Origin: a virus
DNA length: 64,000 nt
Reading direction: 5' to 3' (one strand)
Virus record (IMG/VR): IMGVR_UViG_3300022690_000671
Span: 1 to 64,000 of that record
Of this stretch, positions 1,014-33,600 are shown piece after piece. Below the pieces are notes generated by a model. It saw only the letters and a list, made by a program, of their open reading frames with translations, did not search any database and had not been told where the DNA came from. Within the stretch, counting starts at the first letter, position 1, and each line of letters starts with the position of its first letter. The position numbers and the translations under genes are program-made.

Positions 1014-2954
1014 ATGACGTACGATGGAGATGACGTATTTTTTATCGAGAAATATAATATGACAAGGAGTGAGTTTCTCGATAATATGAGAGAACTCAAT
1101 TCGGAGGATTTGAACAGAGCTATGAAGCTTCTTCGTCAACGCGATGAAAGAAGATTCTATCAACTTAATCCTTTGAATTGGATAGAGGATATACTGGGTA
1201 TCAAGATTGAATCCTTAATATGGTCTATGAATAAAGGCTATGTAAAGTCTGGTAGACTTACGCTTGAAGGAAAGATTGTAGAGGAAAAATGGGACGGAAC
1301 GCCCAATCCTATACAAGCTATAGCTAACAGTCTTGTAGAATGGCAAGATACAGCCGTCGAGAGCGGAACAGGAACAGGGAAAACTTTTTTAGCAGCAGCA
1401 TTAGTTTTATGGTTCTTAGCCGTTTACCCTATGTCCAAGGTATATATGGTTTCCACTAAAAAAGATGCGCTTCGGCAAAACTTATGGCCCGAACTTGAAA
1501 AACATTGGGCAAAGTTTGCAAAAAAATATCCTGATGCTCAGAAAATGGACCTGAAAGTGCGTATGCATCCCGACGAGGACCAAAAAGAAGTCTGGGTGTT
1601 AGATCATCTAATTGCCTCGGTTGGTGCAGATGAACTATCTGCGGGAAAAGCCAAAGGAAAACACGCAGAACATATGCTTTTTGTAATGGACGAAGCCAAT
1701 CATATTGAACTTCCCATTCATGAGGCTATAGAAAATACTTGTACTGCGCCGCATAATCTGAGACTACTTCTTGGTAATCCTGAATCAACTGCTGATTCTC
1801 TTCATCAAACAGCAATTCGTGAAGATGTTCTTCATATAAGGATTTCTTCATATGATCATCCCAATATAGTCGGTAATTCTCCTGAAACTCCACTAATGGA
1901 TCAAATCCAGGTTATTCCTGGGGCCGTGAGTTGGAAATCTATTTCAAAGCGTAGAAATAAATACGGACCCGATGCAGAGACCTATAATTCACATCCTCTG
2001 TATCAAGCTATGGTTCGGGGAATATGCCCGATTACTGCCGTACATTCACTTTTCTCTGTTCGTACTTTACAAATTGTTGGAGAATATTTGCAACAAATTG
2101 AACAACAAAATCCTACTACTGGAAGATGGATTCCTGATCTATCGATAGTCCACAGAGAAGGTCAGTGGGGTTCTGTCGAAGGCTTTACTCGTATTTACGA
2201 AAAGCCTCGTTATGATTACCTTCATAGGTATTTAATATTCGCTGATGTTGGTGGAGATCAAGGTACAGGAGACCACCACGCTGCGGTGGTTTTAGATAGA
2301 ATTAAGAAAAAAATAGTGGCTCTTATTCGTATGAGAGGCAATAGAAATTACTACATAGATGAACTTCTTCGTGTATCAGAATTTTATCGAGGATATGATC
2401 ATACAGGAAATAATATGCGGGGAAGATGGTATTGGCCAATGCTTTGTTGGGAAAAAAATGCAGTAGGTTCGTTAGAACTTTCAGAAAGGTTTATGAATTA
2501 TCCAAACCTCTATATTCAGCGAACTACTGATAAGCCAAAAGAAGGTAAAAAACAGAATGTATATGGATGGTATACGTCATCTAAAAATAGATCTTCTATG
2601 TTGAATCATTTAGTCGAATGGGGTACGTCTTTAAGGGAACGTCCGTGGAGAGTTCCAGACCAAATCATATTCGAAGAAATGAAAGTTATGGAATGGAAGC
2701 TTTCTAGGCATAGATATGAGGCACGTTCAGGTAGTTATGACGATATCATGATGGCAATGGCAGGGGCACTTACTATTGATTTCATTCTTCCTGATCCTAT
2801 CAAGATGGTTTCCAATCCAAATATTTCACCAACCCAAAAACTTTATAATAAGAAAGTGCATAGATTGACAAAAAAGTTAAGACAAACAAACCGTAAGAGA
2901 GGTTGGGGGCATACAAGTTGGGACGATGCTCGAATACCAAAATCTTTGAGATGA
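1014..2954 (+). CDS. terL: terminase large subunit
   Basis: Walker A SGTGTGKT, Walker B LFVMDEA, coupling motif LLGNP, RNase H-like nuclease motifs IFADVG and YDDIMMA. Confidence 0.95.
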   Translation: MTYDGDDVFFIEKYNMTRSEFLDNMRELNSEDLNRAMKLLRQRDERRFYQLNPLNWIEDILGIKIESLIWSMNKGYVKSGRLTLEGKIVEEKWDGTPNPIQAIANSLVEWQDTAVESGTGTGKTFLAAALVLWFLAVYPMSKVYMVSTKKDALRQNLWPELEKHWAKFAKKYPDAQKMDLKVRMHPDEDQKEVWVLDHLIASVGADELSAGKAKGKHAEHMLFVMDEANHIELPIHEAIENTCTAPHNLRLLLGNPESTADSLHQTAIREDVLHIRISSYDHPNIVGNSPETPLMDQIQVIPGAVSWKSISKRRNKYGPDAETYNSHPLYQAMVRGICPITAVHSLFSVRTLQIVGEYLQQIEQQNPTTGRWIPDLSIVHREGQWGSVEGFTRIYEKPRYDYLHRYLIFADVGGDQGTGDHHAAVVLDRIKKKIVALIRMRGNRNYYIDELLRVSEFYRGYDHTGNNMRGRWYWPMLCWEKNAVGSLELSERFMNYPNLYIQRTTDKPKEGKKQNVYGWYTSSKNRSSMLNHLVEWGTSLRERPWRVPDQIIFEEMKVMEWKLSRHRYEARSGSYDDIMMAMAGALTIDFILPDPIKMVSNPNISPTQKLYNKKVHRLTKKLRQTNRKRGWGHTSWDDARIPKSLR

Positions 2955-3319: not shown

Positions 3320-3348
3320 TTGACATAATCCAAATAAAGCTTTACATT
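3320..3348 (+). promoter_or_regulatory. sigma70-like promoter for portal
   Basis: TTGACA (3320-3325) - 17 nt - TACATT (3343-3348); implies the portal starts at ATG 3378, not TTG 3348. Confidence 0.7.
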
Positions 3349-3377
3349 TGATAGTCAACACCAACAACTCTCAAGAT

Positions 3378-5492
3378 ATGTCTTTTATTCACGACAGATT
3401 TAGTGAACTGCAAGGAGATAAAGATGCGATAGTAAAAGCGACATTGAGTCGTTTTGAAGACGATGTCGATTGGCGAACTAATTCGTTCTTCTCGCGAAAT
3501 AGTAATTTTGTCAGAGGAAGTACTGCGTTTGATGAAGCAGTAAATTTGTTTGAAGCAACATCAGAAAATCCAGGAAGTGATTTACCCAGAATTAATTTGA
3601 TTCGTAGGGCAGTAGAAGATTTCTTGGCTGTTACGTTGGAGAATATTCCAACCGCAAGGTTATTTCCAGATAGAGTTGTTCCTCAGTATTTGCCGCAGTG
3701 GCAAAAAGATATGAGACTTGATATTGTGGAAGAGGCCGCACATGTCATGAATGCCTATGTTAAGACGATCATGAATGTCGAGCAGTATCAAGATAAAATA
3801 CAACGAGCAGTTTGGATGTCGGGGATTTTTGGAGTTGGTTATGTTCAAGTTGGACTAGATACTTCGGCAGATATTCGGGAATCGTTTGAGTTGCGTAATT
3901 TAATGGCCCAGGATGAACTCAGTCCTGACGAGGCTCGAAGAATAGATATCCTCACAAAACGAATTCAATTACAGGTGCCTGATCCGAGAGATGTTTATTG
4001 GGAGTCTGGAAAACGAAGGGTAGATGCCGATATGTTGAGGGTATCGATTATTTCTCGTGAGTCAACGCGTGTGCTACAAAAAGAACTTGCGGATAAGGTT
4101 GATAATCCTGAAAATATAAGACCGGGTAAATTTCCACATTCTGTTGGGGAAACACGTATAGGTGGTCTTTCATCGGGCGTCTCGATATCTAACAATGAAC
4201 AAACAGCGATTATGGATATGTGGGAATTGGAACCTGTTGAGAAGGTTAGAACTATACCTGATCCTGAGACGGGAGTTGACCTGGAAATGCCTTTTACTGA
4301 TTGGTTTTTGCATCATATTCAAATAGCTGGAGGAGAGTTCGTTTTCCATAAAATGTTTACTGGTATTTTGTCTGATGACGACAAAAATATGGAAGAAGGT
4401 ACACTTCAGCTTCCAGTCGTTCCTGTTTATTTACGTCAGAGTGTAGATCATCCATATGGTTTTTCGATTCCATTGATGCTTAAAAAATCAGAGGAATTTA
4501 TCAATGTGATGAGAACAATTATGTACAAAGGAGCACGAAAAGCTGTTGTGACGCAAGGTGTCGTCGTCGCAATGCCTAATCTAGGTCGTGACGATCTAGA
4601 TGAGTTAGAGACCGTATTGGAAGAAGGTGGTATTGCTCGAATCTTTGGTAATAGTCAGTCGCCGCTTGATATTAAAGACACTGTTATGCCTTTGTCTTTC
4701 GCAAATGCACCTATCAATACAGCTTTAATTCAAGCTATTGATAGTGAAATGGGCGCGTTTCGTCTCCAAGCTCAAGCTGTTGATCCGAGTGAATTAAGAA
4801 GTGCTCGTTCTGGATCAGCTAAACGAGCACAAATAGCAGCAGCAGATCGTCCAAAGAGCATATCAATTCAGATGCTCAGTGAAGGGATAGAAACTATTAT
4901 GGAACTTATATATAAAAATGTAAGAGTTTTCCATAATACAGAAGTTGGTGTGATGATAGATAGTCCTGCTGGAGAAGGAAGAGATTACGTTACTTTGAAC
5001 GAAAGATTTGAACGAACAATTATAGATCAAGATGAATCTGCTGTGACACCTCAGAATCCTCTAGGTTTTGTCATTACTACTTTTGAAGCTACACTCAATG
5101 CTACAAACTTAAATATGTTTGCTAAATCGTCTGGTCGTAGTGATCTACCACTGGATATGATTAGTAGATTTCAATTGCTTATTGGTCTTCAACAAGCAGG
5201 AATTCTTGATCCTATTACAGTACAAGAATTGACTCTCGATGACAATATTCGCGAACGAGATGAACAAAACCGTCGTCGAAGACAGGAAGTAATGTTACAA
5301 CAGCAACAAGCATTAGCACCTAGTATGATGCCATTACTTAATGCAAGGGATAATACCGCCGTTCAGCGTATGATAGGTGGAGGTTCGCCTCTACCTGGTC
5401 CGACCGAAATGCAACCTAATAGACAAGATATTGCATCGGACTTATTGAACCAGGGACCGATTTCGTCCCCTTCGGCTGCAATGTTTGCTTAA
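3378..5492 (+). CDS. portal protein
   Basis: About 700 aa between TerL and scaffold; P22-like portal hallmarks (INLIRRAVE, GIFGVGYVQVG, PDPRDVYW, LPVVPVY...PYG), Q-rich C-terminus. Confidence 0.85.
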   Translation: MSFIHDRFSELQGDKDAIVKATLSRFEDDVDWRTNSFFSRNSNFVRGSTAFDEAVNLFEATSENPGSDLPRINLIRRAVEDFLAVTLENIPTARLFPDRVVPQYLPQWQKDMRLDIVEEAAHVMNAYVKTIMNVEQYQDKIQRAVWMSGIFGVGYVQVGLDTSADIRESFELRNLMAQDELSPDEARRIDILTKRIQLQVPDPRDVYWESGKRRVDADMLRVSIISRESTRVLQKELADKVDNPENIRPGKFPHSVGETRIGGLSSGVSISNNEQTAIMDMWELEPVEKVRTIPDPETGVDLEMPFTDWFLHHIQIAGGEFVFHKMFTGILSDDDKNMEEGTLQLPVVPVYLRQSVDHPYGFSIPLMLKKSEEFINVMRTIMYKGARKAVVTQGVVVAMPNLGRDDLDELETVLEEGGIARIFGNSQSPLDIKDTVMPLSFANAPINTALIQAIDSEMGAFRLQAQAVDPSELRSARSGSAKRAQIAAADRPKSISIQMLSEGIETIMELIYKNVRVFHNTEVGVMIDSPAGEGRDYVTLNERFERTIIDQDESAVTPQNPLGFVITTFEATLNATNLNMFAKSSGRSDLPLDMISRFQLLIGLQQAGILDPITVQELTLDDNIRERDEQNRRRRQEVMLQQQQALAPSMMPLLNARDNTAVQRMIGGGSPLPGPTEMQPNRQDIASDLLNQGPISSPSAAMFA

Positions 5493-7183: not shown

Positions 7184-8401
7184 ATGGCCCTATTAAAAGT
7201 TGAGGCCGACAAGCTAACTAATGAGTCCTTAGTACGAGGAGTTGTCGAGGTTCTTATCACGAGAGGAAATAGAGACCTTTTTAGTTTGTTGCCTTTTAGA
7301 CGCTTCGAAGGTTCTGCTTATGCATTTAACCAAGAAGCAACTCTTCCCTCCGGCTCTTCAGCCCGAGACCCGTATGGAACGACCATCCCTGGTGGCGTCG
7401 GTACACGTCTTCGTCAAGCTATTGACGTGGGTATGTTGGCACGTGACGCCGATACTGCTCTTATTGACATAGTTGGTAAGAGTGATTTCAACAATCAGAG
7501 AAGTAATGATATTCAGATGGCCGCAAAGAAGTTGGCTCAAGACTTCTCTTTCCAGTTCGTCAACGGTCGAAGTGATCTTGGTGTAACCTATGCCGACTTC
7601 AACCTACGCGGACTAGAACACTGGTTGGCTACTTATCTCGCGTCTTTTCCAGATCAAGTAATTTTTGCCACAAATGATGGTCTTTCAAATGGTACGAAAC
7701 AATCATTGAGTCTGACCAAGATCGATGACCTTTTGAGTCGTTGGAAAGGTCAAGGATTTGATGCCATTAAGTCCGATAGAGCAACTGCGGTTGCTTTTAA
7801 GGGTCTTCTAAACCTGGCTGGTGGAAACACTGGTGCATTGTTTATGATTGACCAGTTTGGACAACCCGTTATGCAATACTCGGGTGTTCGTTGGTACATC
7901 TCAGATGACGTAGGCGCAGAAAAGGTATCTGGTGCAGCGGGAGAGATTACGTCGGGCGCTGCTACATTGGTAGTAGACGACGTTAAGGATCCCTTCTGGA
8001 TTGGTTTCTCTGATCTGGACGTTGGTCGTGGCATCGACGTAACTACAGCTTCGATTCCGGCTAATACTACGGTTCTTTCTGTGACTGACATTCGTACAGT
8101 AGTACTCAGCGCTAATGCTGGGGGAACTGCTACAGTAGGTGTCGTTACGGTTTCGGCAACTGAAGCCATTTACGCGGTACGCTTCGATGAAATGGACGGT
8201 ATGTCTGCCATTTATCATTCAGGCCGAGGTGTTCCTGTTGGTAGTATTGGCGAACACCACGGTCCCATCGCTGGATTTGATTCCGAGGACATCGGTCTAC
8301 TCGAAAGCGGAAGGATTGTCCGTATGGCGTTGCACTGGTTCGGAAACTTTGTTTTGCATAGTCCGTTCGCCACTGCTCGATTAAGCCATTTTACTGTGTA
8401 A
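7184..8401 (+). CDS. major capsid protein (HK97 fold, epsilon15 gp7-like) with inserted beta-rich domain
   Basis: MALLKVEADKL...RGVVE...LLPF..FEGSAY.FNQEATLP N-terminus typical of this capsid family; follows scaffold. Confidence 0.85.
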   Translation: MALLKVEADKLTNESLVRGVVEVLITRGNRDLFSLLPFRRFEGSAYAFNQEATLPSGSSARDPYGTTIPGGVGTRLRQAIDVGMLARDADTALIDIVGKSDFNNQRSNDIQMAAKKLAQDFSFQFVNGRSDLGVTYADFNLRGLEHWLATYLASFPDQVIFATNDGLSNGTKQSLSLTKIDDLLSRWKGQGFDAIKSDRATAVAFKGLLNLAGGNTGALFMIDQFGQPVMQYSGVRWYISDDVGAEKVSGAAGEITSGAATLVVDDVKDPFWIGFSDLDVGRGIDVTTASIPANTTVLSVTDIRTVVLSANAGGTATVGVVTVSATEAIYAVRFDEMDGMSAIYHSGRGVPVGSIGEHHGPIAGFDSEDIGLLESGRIVRMALHWFGNFVLHSPFATARLSHFTV

Positions 8402-18030: not shown

Positions 18031-18690
18031 ATGGCTATTTTAGTATCAGATATTATTGTTCAAATTAGGCGTAAGTTAGATCAACGTCCGTTGGAAAACG
18101 AGGATGTCCAAACGGATTCCGCTGTTATTGGATCTCCCTCGACTAATTTTGGGGATCTTAATTTGCTTACTCGTATTAATCATGCAGTTGTCTTCATTGC
18201 TAAACAGGTAAAAGCAATGCATATATCGGCGTCAATTTCCAACTACACCGGGCCTTTTCCTGATGTAGCAGCAAACGCCGATCTTTTAAGGCCGCTTTTT
18301 AGCCGAGTTTTTGCAAATACGATAAGAGCAACACAACGAAGCGTCGACCGACAACGTAGATTAGAAAATAGTGGCAGGGCCGCATCTGCAACTTTTCCAG
18401 TTTATACCTACGAAGATGGTAAACTGGAAATAACACCAAGTAGCGGAACTGATAATGCTTTTATCGTCATAGTTCCCACTATACTGACAACAACTAATCA
18501 GAACTTGGGAATTGATGAACGTTTTGAAGCGGCTGTTATTTGGCACGTTGTAGCTTCGTGTTATGAAACCATGAGACAAACTGATATGCATTCGGCATTT
18601 ATGGTTCTTTTTCAAGACGAGATTCAACCTTACTTGTTGGATAATAGGTTGGACAACGTGTTCGATGAGCGAGAAACGGCGACGGAGTAA
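18031..18690 (+). CDS. putative head-tail adaptor / tail ring protein, paralog 2
   Basis: IIVQIRRKLD...IN.A, IDERFEAAVIWHV adaptor-like pattern. Confidence 0.65.
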   Translation: MAILVSDIIVQIRRKLDQRPLENEDVQTDSAVIGSPSTNFGDLNLLTRINHAVVFIAKQVKAMHISASISNYTGPFPDVAANADLLRPLFSRVFANTIRATQRSVDRQRRLENSGRAASATFPVYTYEDGKLEITPSSGTDNAFIVIVPTILTTTNQNLGIDERFEAAVIWHVVASCYETMRQTDMHSAFMVLFQDEIQPYLLDNRLDNVFDERETATE

Positions 18691-21004: not shown

Positions 21005-21862
21005 ATGGAATTTATAATTGATATCAAAAATAGAATGGGCGTGTATACCATTACCAATTTGGTGAATCGAAAGGTATATTTTGGATCTACCACTGTGTGT
21101 TTACATAAACGTATGATTCGTCATCTTTCTAGGTTAAAAAGTAAAAAGCATCGTAACAAATATCTTCAACGTTCATTTGACAAATATGGCGAAGAAAATT
21201 TTTATTTTGAGGTTTTAGAAATTGTTGACAAAAAAGAAGATGTTAGAACACGAGAAGCGTTTTGGTTAAATGCTTTTTGGGGTAGCGGAAGAATATATAA
21301 TCTAGTTAAAGTTGATGGTTATAATGTAGGAGATAAACCGTCAAACTATTTAAGCGAAAAATATCAAGGCGAGGAACTTATTGATCCGGATGGTAATATT
21401 ATCTTGTTTGAAGGAACTTGTGCTAATTTCGCAAGGAAACATGACATTTGCGCTACCGGATTATATAGATTATTCAATGGGATAAGTCGTCACAGTCAAG
21501 GATGGTCTCTTAAAAAACACAACCTTCCATCTTTCGTTTCTCCCGAAGGAGTTATTTATGATCGTATTTATAATATTGCCTTATTTGCGAGAAAACATAA
21601 TTTGAACAAAAGTTCATTACAACAACTGGTTCGTCATGAAATAAAATATCATAATGGGTGGACATTGGTGGGGAGTTATTTACCTACTTTGATTTCACCA
21701 GAAGGTAAAATATTCGAGAGAGTTTGCAATTTAAGTTCATTTGCTAAAAAGAATAATTTATCGGGATCTATGTTAAGTAGTATGATTCTTGGTAATCAAC
21801 GAACACACAAAGGTTGGACTTGCGTTAATCCTAAAACAAAAAAAATCATTCTACAGGATTAA
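21005..21862 (+). CDS. free-standing GIY-YIG homing endonuclease
   Basis: GVYTITNLVNRKVYFGS...R...H...HRNKYLQRSFDKYGEENF.FEVLE...E...YN; three C-terminal repeats ending H.GW. Confidence 0.9.
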   Translation: MEFIIDIKNRMGVYTITNLVNRKVYFGSTTVCLHKRMIRHLSRLKSKKHRNKYLQRSFDKYGEENFYFEVLEIVDKKEDVRTREAFWLNAFWGSGRIYNLVKVDGYNVGDKPSNYLSEKYQGEELIDPDGNIILFEGTCANFARKHDICATGLYRLFNGISRHSQGWSLKKHNLPSFVSPEGVIYDRIYNIALFARKHNLNKSSLQQLVRHEIKYHNGWTLVGSYLPTLISPEGKIFERVCNLSSFAKKNNLSGSMLSSMILGNQRTHKGWTCVNPKTKKIILQD

Positions 21863-30600: not shown

Positions 30601-33600
30601 GCATTAGCACGAGGAGAACCTACAGCGACATTTTTTGCTGAACCAGGTGTTGTAGAAGGTGAGGAAGCTATTGAAGGCGAAGCCGCTGTAACACTAACCC
30701 GCGAACAATTCTTGGAGCGCTTAACGAACGAGGAAAATATTCGTCGTTTGGCTCAGAATCAGGCTAATTTAGAACAAAGAACAATTACCGTTCAGATAGA
30801 TCCCGGTGCAGCGCCAGAGATCTTTACGCCTACGAAGCTACGTGTGCCTCGACCTGGTCCCGTAACGGAAGCGGAGCGTCAGGAGACCCTGGCAGAGGAA
30901 CGTATCGCTCGGACGCGACAGCAGCAGCTACAGCGCGTGGAGGAGGCTGCTACGGTGGCGACGGAGGACCCGTTAACTGCTCTTCGAGAAGCCATAGCCA
31001 ATCAGGACGTTAATCGTATAGCAGAAATTGTCGATATTAACCCAGATGCGTTTGAAACTGCTGATCGACAAAGTCTAATAGAGGAAGCAGAAGAACAAGG
31101 TCCAGGTGTTGCGGCATTTGTAGAAAGTCAATTAGCCTTTCCTACGGAAGCGGTTGAACGTGAGCCTACTCAACTAAGAGTTCCGGTAACACCACAGGTA
31201 GATGTTCAGGAAGAAGCCGTACGCGCAGAATCAGCACAGCGTGTCTCAGAGCGTAATAAACTCGAAACACAACGCACAGAACTTATTAATCAATTTAACG
31301 CATCTGAACAATCTGTTCAGGACGCATTGGCCGCCTTTGATGAAAAATTTCCAACTTCAACTTCAGCACAAATATTGCAAACTAAGACATCTTTGGAGCA
31401 AGGCGAAATACCTGCACCTCTCACAAGAGTCAACCGAAACAACACCACGTTGGTCGCTGTTCGTGATGCTATTCAGCGGCTCAATGATGTAAACGATCAG
31501 TTAGAACAAGTTGAAACTACTATTGGTGATGTCGAAGGTCGTATGACTGGTCTAGAACTCGCCGTAAGTCCAGAAGGCACTACCCCAGAAGAACGAGACG
31601 AAATAGCAGCAATTCAGGCGTTACGTCTAGATGAAAACCAGGAAGTTTCACTCATTCGTCAAGTGTTGGGGCGTCAGTTTGTGACTGATAAAGTCTCGTC
31701 AAAATCAGTTGTCGACACAGAAAACGGCACATTTAGGATTGATTTATATCAGGACTTCCGTAATCCCGGACAATCAATAGCTTTTGTTGAGGGCACAATC
31801 GTTGAAGATGGCGACGATCCTCATATGCAAATTACAAGTCGTGGAACCGAACGTGGTTTCCGTGGTCGAGGGTTTGGTTCGCAACTTCTAGATGAGGCTT
31901 TTCAAGAAGCTACGTTCAGAAATATTCCTCTACGAAGCGACAACAACGTTTCCGCAGCGGCAGTACGTACATTCCGACGCTTTGGTGAACAAAGCAACGT
32001 TGATCTGGTTCAGTCTGATAATACAACAGAACTTCCAGACGGATCTTTCTTCCTTGCGGGGGATAATCCTAATTACGTTTTCCAACTTACTGTCTCTAGT
32101 GACGATCCGCTCCCTCCGGACTTCTTTGGAGAAGACACGCCCCTGGTAGAAAACGTTGAAGAAGCCGAAGAACAATTCAATGAAGCTACTGCTACACCAG
32201 ACGAGGATACGACACTGGAAACTGAAGAAAACGTAGTGCGTTTGCGTATGGAAGACGAACTTCGTAAGACAAGTGTAGACTTGCAGGGTCCTATTCCATC
32301 TGTAGTACGTCGCGACGATCCCAAAGAAGGACAAGAAGATACTATTCCTGATGGTGTTCAAAGTAGCGAAGAATTTGCTCAATTCTTTGCCGATACCGTA
32401 AGAGCAGAAGATGGTGGGGCTCAAAATGTAGAGGATCCTCTTAATGCTTCGGTAATGGATACAGAAGAACACGAAAGTATTTACGAGACCTACGAAAGCT
32501 TTCAGGGTAATTTCGACACTCATATTTCAACCAGTATTCCTGGATTTGTTGACGCTCAAGTTCGTGTAGTAGATGCTCTAAGTAAAATACTTGAAGAAGG
32601 TTCCGAAGTGCTTGATATAGGCGCTGGGGAAAACACATTCCTCAAAACGCTACAGGTAACAAGTAGAGCAAATGATCGAAGAATTGAAGGTTTAGGTATT
32701 GATTCATCAGCAGCTATGAGAGATGCGGCTAAGAAGCGTCGTGTTCGTGGAATCAGATTCCGACTAAGTGCGTGGGGCGAGTCTTTTGTAGATCCGGACA
32801 CAGGACGCAGAGTTAAAGTGTTCGAGGCTGATGATGGAACATATGACCTTGTATATGAGGGTATGACCTTTCAGTTCATTAGCGATGATCGCAGTGGGCA
32901 GTTAGATGAAGTTGTTCGTATAATGAAGGACGATGGTCTTTTTGTGACGTTAGAGAAATTTAATCAACAAAATGAAGATACCTATTTCCAACAGGAAAAA
33001 GCCAAAGACGCATTTAAGCTCCTATTCTATGAGCAGAGTGATATAGATACCAAGAAAAAAACTGTTCTTGGTAATGCCGCGTCTCGTGAAGGTATGCGTA
33101 GCAATATGGTAGATCAGACGACATTCGAGAATTTACTTCTCGACCGTTTTGAACATGTCGCCCAAATATGGTCATCTGGAAACTTCAGTGGCTACATTGC
33201 AACAAATGACAGAGCCAAATTCGATGCGTTTATTTCAAACCTAAGTTCGACGAATAGTGACTTTGCTGTTAAGCAAACGCCTCATTTAATAAGCGATAGC
33301 CCTGCCCAACGCGATGGACTTAATACTGCCCAGCGCACCCAGGAACAAGAAGTTGAAACTACATTACAAGGAACTCCTGTTGTGGCTCAATGGACCAAGC
33401 AAGAGACAGGGCGATACACACACGAAATAGACGGATCTGTTTGGGAGATTAAACTAGAAGAGGGCGATTGGAACACAACTCGCGATGGCGTTTCAGTACT
33501 CGATCCTACTCGTACACTAAGAGAAGCTAAAACTCTGGTGTCAGAAGCTATTAATCTCACTCGTAATGATGCACTTCAAGATGATGGCGATTTGATTCAA

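Follow-up and report, generated by a model that had tools for sequence, protein, structure and literature searches.

A divergent CmoA-like module within a giant, putatively virion-delivered protein of a podovirus-like phage

The DNA analysed here, referred to as the window, comprises positions 1 to 64,000 (64,000 nucleotides) of the IMG/VR virus record IMGVR_UViG_3300022690_000671, a viral record of 79,947 bp with an estimated completeness of 66%, and its source is a podovirus-like phage. A block of structural genes on the plus strand ends with a giant open reading frame (ORF), and inside this ORF lies a module that resembles CmoA, the carboxy-S-adenosylmethionine (carboxy-SAM) synthase of E. 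coli (Table 1). An earlier note on this DNA had placed a CmoA-like domain, embedded in a giant virion protein, at 32480-33215. The domain is indeed there, within the giant ORF that closes the structural block, but the proposed start lies 2 nt ahead of the codon boundary, so that the proposed interval translates out of frame; the core runs from 32482 to 33207. All peptide strings quoted in that note were found in frame in the ORF between amino acid (aa) 1619, where NFDTHISTSIPGF begins, and aa 1849, where FSGYIA ends, and the CmoA strings cited there agree with the E. coli CmoA sequence (L082:7703-8443) in the alignment.

Table 1. Features of the window, with residue numbers referring to the giant protein unless another ORF is named
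Feature	Coordinates	Strand	Remarks
Large terminase	1014-2954	+	
Portal	3348-5492	+	
Major capsid	7184-8401	+	
SU10-adaptor-like ORF	18031-18690	+	PF24175, 26.9 bits (cut-off 27)
Homing-endonuclease ORF	21005-21862		phrog_314 (E 1e-24) and GIY-YIG/HNH-labelled PHROGs
Two ORFs, 254 aa and 518 aa	25310-27633	+	Directly upstream of the giant ORF
Giant ORF, 3350 aa	27655-37707	+	Single open frame; closes the plus-strand structural block
Two exact tandem copies of a 21-aa unit, PEPLEILPQPGVSTAEQLAAA	27754-27879 (aa 34-75)		Near the N-terminus of the giant protein; seen in the translation
Weak GNAT acetyltransferase-like stretch	31768-31986 (aa 1372-1444)	+	Pfam Acetyltransf_1, E 6.8e-4
Whole conserved module	32362-33297 (aa ~1570-1881)	+	N-terminal helix extension, CmoA-like core, C-terminal tail strand
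CmoA-like class I SAM-binding core	32482-33207 (aa 1610-1851)	+	
Motif I, D1654-I-G-A-G-E-N1660	32614-32634	+	Family consensus DIGASEG; CmoA DLGCSLG
Strand 4 end, E1735-G-M-T-F-Q-F1741	32857-32877	+	QF pair as in CmoA NFTLQF
Helical lid between strands 5 and 6	32953-33150	+	E1767, K1768, E1781, K1788, K1800
DNA polymerase ORF, 1312 aa	43941-47879	-	Extra C-terminal domain at aa 1148-1309, phrog_289 'GTP-binding domain'

The CmoA-like module is the only firm domain of the giant ORF, about 2700 aa of which are without a family match in Pfam and PHROG. It was modelled by AlphaFold 2 as one folded unit (aa 1560-1885; predicted local distance difference test score, pLDDT, 90.3; predicted template modelling score, pTM, 0.91), and the model of the core reached a pLDDT of 93.6 and a pTM of 0.91. 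F1577, F1870 and P1876 are kept across the giant proteins that carry the module. In the family, 34 positions reach a conservation of at least 90%. The window copy retains 32 of them and looks intact at this level; the two departures from near-invariant sites are both in motif I (Ser to Gly1658 and Gly to Asn1660). CmoA is a dimer; a homodimer test of the module gave a score of 0.00, which counts neither for nor against dimerisation.

Among 38,880 PHROGs the module matched a single one, PHROG 4752 (E 1e-18 to 1e-20, 75 bits), over positions 13-238 of 241. Because E. coli CmoA scores 340 bits against phrog_4752 and the phage CmoAs 239-271 bits (239 for SpCmoA, the CmoA of Synechococcus phage S-B43), this PHROG corresponds to the CmoA family. 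When a 43-sequence profile of the module was used as query against the PDB, the CmoA structures came first (1IM8, E 5e-11; 4IWN and 4GEK, ~1e-9, to 2e-9), followed by MM_2633 (2e-6), CysG (3e-3) and generic methyltransferases (0.07 or higher). The hhalign comparison with E. coli CmoA gave a probability of 97% and an E value of 1e-10 over residues 24-241 of 247, and TIGR00740, the NCBIfam equivalog model of CmoA, was aligned end to end (positions 24-236 of 239; E 2.3e-4). In Pfam only generic models were matched (Methyltransf_11, E 3e-5), and a protein atlas search of the module returned only generic methyltransferase clusters, mostly viral. The end-to-end likeness to CmoA, lid included, that the earlier note had recognised is thus found again with PHROG 4752, the PDB profile and hhalign, at a strength well above anything expected by chance, and the best matches are CmoA with its lid, not the lidless generic methyltransferases that it had named as the outcome speaking against it. 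The core of the module is thereby confirmed as a class I SAM-binding domain whose only specific relatives are CmoA.

Structural alignment of the model with VIA placed CmoA in a top tier together with CysG/BelI and MM_2633 (Z 21.2-22.0; 207-213 residues aligned; root-mean-square deviation, rmsd, 2.3-2.8). The Z scores to CmoA were 21.6 for 4IWN, 21.4 for 1IM8 and 21.2 for 4GEK (211-213 residues, rmsd 2.7-2.8), and below this tier came Coq5 (Z 18.8) and generic class I enzymes (Z of 17.4 or lower). Structure alone is inadequate to tell CmoA from CysG/BelI, but the motifs separate them. CysG and BelI are metal-dependent carboxyl O-methyltransferases with a His-His-Asp metal motif (PMC11408123), and CmoA is favoured over them because the module has Gln-Phe and Glu-Lys at the sites of the His-His and Asp residues. 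By this motif the module falls outside the metal-dependent O-methyltransferases of the CysG/BelI type.

The comparison with CmoA was taken to the level of residues in an alignment of 76 family members and six CmoA homologues (from E. coli and from phages S-B05, PhiSepi-HH3, pEa_SNUABM_35, SM1 and Evaa), with conservation within the family measured in a 152-member alignment. All positions kept in at least five of the six CmoA homologues are also conserved in the phage family, namely, in CmoA numbering, F28, S35, P37, Y39, D62, G64, S66, G68, D89, Q136, F137, R143, G158, E164, K165, E175, K185, K198 and F235. Seven of these are lid or pocket residues that do not contact SAM: Q136 and R143, equivalent to Q1740 and R1746 of the module, and the lid residues E164, K165, E175, K185 and K198, equivalent to E1767, K1768, E1781, K1788 and K1800. 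The polar pocket residues are strictly conserved over more than 150 clusters that share ~35-40% identity.

The cofactor of CmoA is contacted by Tyr39, Asp62, Gly64, Ser66, Asp89 and Asn132 (PMC3663124). These contacts have their counterparts in the module: Tyr39 aligns with F1631 (Phe or Tyr in the family), Asp62 with D1654, Gly64 with G1656, Ser66 with G1658 (Ser in 145 of the 152 family members), Asp89 with D1683 and Asn132 with G1736/E1735. Asp117 falls in an insert region, and to judge from the alignment an aromatic residue, F/W1707, probably stands in its place. In E. coli CmoA, Arg199 is bound through a salt bridge to the carboxyl group of the product, carboxy-SAM (PMC3663124, PMC4482062). 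The earlier note had pointed out that Lys stands in its place, and Lys1801 was indeed aligned to this site by the PDB profile, by hhalign and in the multiple alignment. The substitution is real, but it carries less weight than was given to it, the site being variable across the family (Ala, Arg, Lys and others) and Glu in SpCmoA, where an Arg is found four residues further on. SpCmoA is also the CmoA with the highest score against the hidden Markov model of the family among those tested (62 bits, compared with 44 bits for E. coli CmoA), and has two further residues, His31 and Lys72, in common with the family. It is a highly active carboxy-SAM synthase, proven experimentally (PMC12783734), and the CmoA of S-B05 is 100% identical to it. 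Residues invariant in the family only are Glu1659, His1734/Glu1735, Lys1784, Asp1785 and Met1814.

The family is large: an exhaustive search gave at least 509 clusters (50% identity), and for 375 of these the E value was 1e-10 or lower. Nearly all members lie within phage proteins of 1000-5700 aa; in the best 150 clusters carrier length has a median of 2456 aa and a maximum of 5697 aa, and the stand-alone forms are only a handful, of 281-445 aa. A homology search restricted to proteins of 143-457 aa returned no relatives. A short form of the module adjoins the terminase genes at one locus (L047). In IMG/VR, 125 stretches of the module were confirmed, as compared to two matches in a set of 185,579 bacterial and archaeal species, each represented by one genome; both came from metagenome-assembled genomes (MAGs) of Bacteroidota. 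Among 50,697 GenBank phage records only that of Maribacter phage Panino contains the module; its carrier there is 1829 aa long, bears the label 'tRNA methyltransferase' and is encoded where the structural block ends. The family is thus almost confined to viruses, and according to these sequence comparisons it is best regarded as a divergent offshoot of the CmoA family, forming a new and large virus-specific branch.

The position of the module along its carriers varies from 0.24 to 0.79 of their length, and the rest of the giant ORF showed no similarity to 153 other carriers by BLAST or phmmer, even at an E value of 10, so that no conserved neighbouring domain can be used to infer its function. 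Domains were scanned in 21 giant proteins, the giant ORF and 20 other carriers. The other carriers contain ART-PolyVal, InPase, LPD38, LPD22, GGDEF, PolyA_pol, HD, lysozyme, GNAT and DUF7178 domains as well as inteins; ART-PolyVal was found in four of the 21, a firm GNAT domain in three and DUF7178 in eight, in one of which (P0002) it does not adjoin the module. The best matches in BFVD were pieces of an 'ART-PolyVal-like' protein from an uncultured phage, whereas no LPD or PolyVal model of Pfam was matched in the giant ORF itself. Inserts were seen in some carriers: in P0004 an intein lies within a domain upstream of the module (aa 423-795), and in P0006 and P0123 inserts of ~210-220 aa split the module between its N- and C-terminal halves.

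Within the giant ORF, the GNAT-like stretch lies about 170 aa upstream of the module and scores 20.3 bits against Acetyltransf_1, compared with a cut-off of 20.7; its matches to N-acetyltransferases of the PDB were weak as well (E 0.03-0.13). Acidic residues strongly prevail in the first ~2500 aa of this protein (D+E 16-22%, K+R 8-12%), and the last ~850 aa are basic and terminate in GGGRRRSRTRRSKER. There is only one clearly hydrophobic segment, at aa 346-371.

The genes around the giant ORF are those of the plus-strand structural block, after which come the replication genes on the minus strand. A podovirus-type tail is suggested because the ORF at 18031-18690 matches PF24175, the adaptor family of the Kuravirus podophage SU10. 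The homing-endonuclease ORF lies within the block, immediately ahead of an 1129-aa ORF. The 254-aa and 518-aa ORFs had no family match, and their place in the gene order makes them possible candidates for partner core or ejection proteins. We take the order of these two ORFs and the giant ORF after the adaptor-like gene to resemble that of the T7 core proteins gp14-gp15-gp16, a likeness that is drawn by analogy. The same order of small, medium and giant gene is found in Panino, which is a podovirus by electron microscopy (PMC11590407).

For polyvalent proteins, which phages and conjugative elements encode, packaging in the virion and injection together with the DNA have been predicted (Iyer et al. 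2017, PMC5512222). Two of their features are found here. The module occurs with shared domains, at variable positions and between dissimilar flanks, as in the domain shuffling of these proteins, and the giant gene is the last of a block with terminase, portal, capsid and adaptor genes, a position that it also has in Panino. Through its module the giant protein is, as far as can be read from such features, one of the polyvalent proteins. Because of the gene position and of the polyvalent domains that occur together with the module in other carriers, we infer, by analogy, that the giant protein is packaged and delivered with the DNA.

The reading that we place first, tentatively and without regarding it as established or even probable, is that the module is a virion-delivered enzyme of the CmoA type that converts SAM. 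The giant 'polyvalent' protein would be packaged in the virion and ejected with the DNA, and the module would bind SAM in a closed pocket beneath the helical lid, where CmoA-type chemistry could take place on SAM and a small carboxylate co-substrate. CmoA itself converts SAM and prephenate to carboxy-SAM and phenylpyruvate. The module would act in the newly infected cell, ahead of any phage gene expression, and would do so alone, supplying neither a DNA carboxymethylation by CmoX nor a tRNA modification by CmoB. The likely benefit would be interference with SAM-dependent host defences or signals. Conversion of SAM is ranked first because the CmoA pocket residues that are not involved in cofactor binding are conserved, and since they are kept, the module may still handle SAM and a small carboxylate under its lid. 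What is shown is the homology, the fold, the conserved residues, the family's distribution and the lack of partner genes; SAM binding, chemistry, packaging, injection and benefit are predicted, and the use of SAM consumption or modification as an anti-restriction or anti-BREX (bacteriophage exclusion) device, proposed in the earlier note, may be one form of such a benefit. The most specific version, in which a virion-delivered carboxy-SAM synthase turns host SAM and prephenate into carboxy-SAM at DNA entry and so jams defences, serving more than 500 phage lineages as a routine plug-in effector, seems rather unlikely to us; type I and III restriction, BREX and SAM-AMP signalling would then be starved or jammed with no need for a DNA carboxymethylation pathway.

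Several observations weigh against a CmoA-type conversion of SAM. The score against TIGR00740 was 20.9 bits, compared with a curated cut-off of 193.3, the identity of the module to any CmoA is only ~23%, and a very long branch divides the family from all CmoAs in the tree (100/100 support). The family has no conserved Arg at the lid sites aligned with CmoA positions 199 and 203, which could hold the carboxylate of the product. Glu1735, Glu1659, Lys1784 and Asp1785 are invariant beside the presumed methyl site, where CmoA is hydrophobic (PMC10491745), and these residues of the family's own may point to a different chemistry, for example a base-assisted methyl transfer. Potential users of carboxy-SAM are also lacking: neither CmoB (TIGR00452) nor a C5-methyltransferase (PF00145) was found in the 79.9-kb record, which is 66% complete, and PF00145 was present in only two of 25 records of related phages and in two of the 13 with a completeness of at least 90%. 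Furthermore, the SAM pool of E. coli is ~180 uM (PMC4482062), and a few injected molecules are unlikely to drain all of it; wholesale depletion of SAM would fit less well than product inhibition or a role that is local or directed at a signal.

A partnership with CmoX or CmoB was considered and set aside, the partner genes being absent from the record and the C5-methyltransferase so rare in the relatives. A link to tRNAs carrying uridine 5-oxyacetic acid (cmo5U) was considered as well. The phage has 15 tRNA genes, all on the minus strand beyond the end of the window (L088, G000:C1:64001-79947), among them Thr-UGU, Pro-UGG, Ala-UGC and Leu-UAG, which are of the cmo5U type in Gram-negative bacteria. 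In Panino, a tRNA array adjoins the giant gene. However, only three tRNAs, none of the cmo5U type, were found within 10 kb of the module in 27 related loci, and this link was set aside although the phage's own tRNAs would fit it. The two Bacteroidota MAGs with the module have no true CmoB, and in one of the two a true CmoA lies on a different contig. This is the Ferruginibacter MAG (also with L089), in which a bona fide CmoA (G026:C449:1867-2583) scored 256 bits, over the cut-off, and no CmoB was found above the cut-off, so that CmoA occurs there without its usual partner.

The closest competitor of a SAM-converting enzyme is an ordinary SAM-dependent methyltransferase that arose from a CmoA-like ancestor and is injected to methylate a specific small molecule, such as a defence signal or its precursor, or else a host protein, with Glu1735 as a base. 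We place it only slightly below the first reading. The small-carboxylate O-methyltransferases of the CysG, BelI and MM_2633 type (PMC11408123) are in the same structural tier as CmoA, Pfam gives generic models only, the record encodes no carboxy-SAM user, and the long stem branch from the CmoAs as well as the family's own invariant acidic and basic residues at the strand 4 end and in the lid speak for such an enzyme. By our reasoning, a low-copy injected enzyme would also be better suited to a low-abundance target than to bulk SAM. What speaks against it is that all CmoA-specific residues outside the SAM site were retained, whereas residues for the second substrate are usually the first to change when function shifts. 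In addition, the His-His-Asp metal motif of CysG/BelI is missing, and sequence comparison puts CmoA about five orders of magnitude ahead of MM_2633. The motif I substitutions of the window copy, Gly1658 and Asn1660, might alternatively be taken as signs of an inactive SAM-binding or structural domain, which might be a sensor or, within the ejected protein, a folded plug. This appears very improbable, considering that the near-invariant positions that this copy keeps include all polar lid residues and that strict conservation of a polar pocket over more than 150 clusters is typical of active enzymes.

The module may also act late, in the phage-producing cell, its place in a virion protein being incidental; it would then provide carboxy-SAM for cmo5U on the phage tRNAs or modify a virion component before packaging. 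The 15 tRNAs with their four cmo5U-type members and the array beside the giant gene of Panino could be read in this sense, as could the copy number, since late phage genes yield products in hundreds of copies per cell. The scarcity of tRNAs near the module in the related loci and the lack of CmoB from the record nevertheless make it improbable. Fusion to more than 500 unrelated giant proteins of structural blocks is a further point against it, and because of these fusions co-delivery is favoured over cytoplasmic housekeeping. The least likely function of all, to which we give hardly any credit, is that of a DarB-like DNA methyltransferase guarding the incoming genome in cis, in spite of the fact that DarB-type methylases are known methyltransferase domains of polyvalent proteins (PMC5512222). 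As the earlier note had stated, the motifs of DNA methylases are missing: no [DNS]PP[YFWH] occurs in the 3350 aa, and the module contains neither PC nor any Cys. A DNA N6/N4 or C5 methyltransferase is unlikely because of this absence of NPPY/DPPY from the protein and of Cys from the module; moreover, no helicase partner domain was found among the family matches, and the top structural tier is made up of enzymes that act on small molecules beneath a closed lid.

Phage CmoAs were first characterised in December 2025, solely as suppliers of carboxy-SAM for DNA carboxymethylation (PMC12783734). The family described here is a much larger, virus-restricted sister family, located in giant structural-block proteins and uncoupled from CmoX. 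If active after ejection, the module would represent a novel type of ready-made enzyme for counter-defence or takeover, with the SAM pool or a small metabolite as its target, and would add an apparently undescribed enzymatic class to the repertoire of polyvalent proteins. No paper that names both 'CmoA' and 'polyvalent protein' was found in the searchable literature, and the occurrence of the module within giant phage proteins is apparently undescribed in the literature searched. The question is directly testable because Maribacter phage Panino, which carries the module, is available in culture.

Among known systems, the SAM lyase (SAMase) of T3 is cited in PMC12783734 as a phage enzyme that removes SAM and blunts defences such as BREX. 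It would be a functional analogue only, as its fold and chemistry are unrelated to those of the module and it is produced early, by expression of the genome, and not brought in by the virion. CysG/BelI and MM_2633 (9FCL, 9FCE, 3DTN) are structurally as close as CmoA or marginally closer (Z 21.6-22.0) and also have a closed pocket for a small molecule; their His-His sites are Q1740-F1741 in the module, however, and the lid residues differ. Polyvalent proteins such as P1 DarB are large and composed of many domains. The giant protein has in common with them its size and its location among late or structural-block genes, and other carriers of the module share ART-PolyVal and further domains with them. 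The methyltransferase described for polyvalent proteins is a DarB-type, EcoKI/TaqI-like N6-adenine DNA methylase fused to a helicase (PMC5512222), and the main text of that paper does not contain 'CmoA', 'S-adenosyl' or 'SAM-dependent'. DarB has an NPP(Y/F) motif and a superfamily 2 (SF2) helicase, neither of which was found in the giant ORF by Pfam, PHROG or motif scan.

The likeness to CmoA itself (E. coli 4GEK/4IWN; H. influenzae YecO, 1IM8) extends over the whole fold with its N-terminal helices and helical lid and over the motifs SxPG[YF], D-x-G, D, xxQF, R, EK, E, K, K and NF-G. The differences are that Arg199 is not conserved in the family, that the module sits in a 3350-aa protein, that cmoB is not adjacent, and that the module alone has an additional helix at its N-terminus, an additional strand at its C-terminus and, between strands 3 and 4, an inserted hairpin. 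The phage CmoA-CmoX-CmoY pathway of Synechococcus phage S-B43/S-B05 leads to 5-carboxymethylcytosine in DNA (PMC12783734). The CmoA of these phages is the closest in several respects, as it is also of phage origin, has the best score against the family profile and lacks an Arg at the site of E. coli Arg199. It is, however, a stand-alone protein of 231 aa encoded by an early or replication-block gene, and like other stand-alone phage CmoAs, which adjoin CmoX and CmoY, it has a C5-methyltransferase homologue and an amide ligase as neighbours, whereas the module is part of giant proteins encoded in structural blocks.

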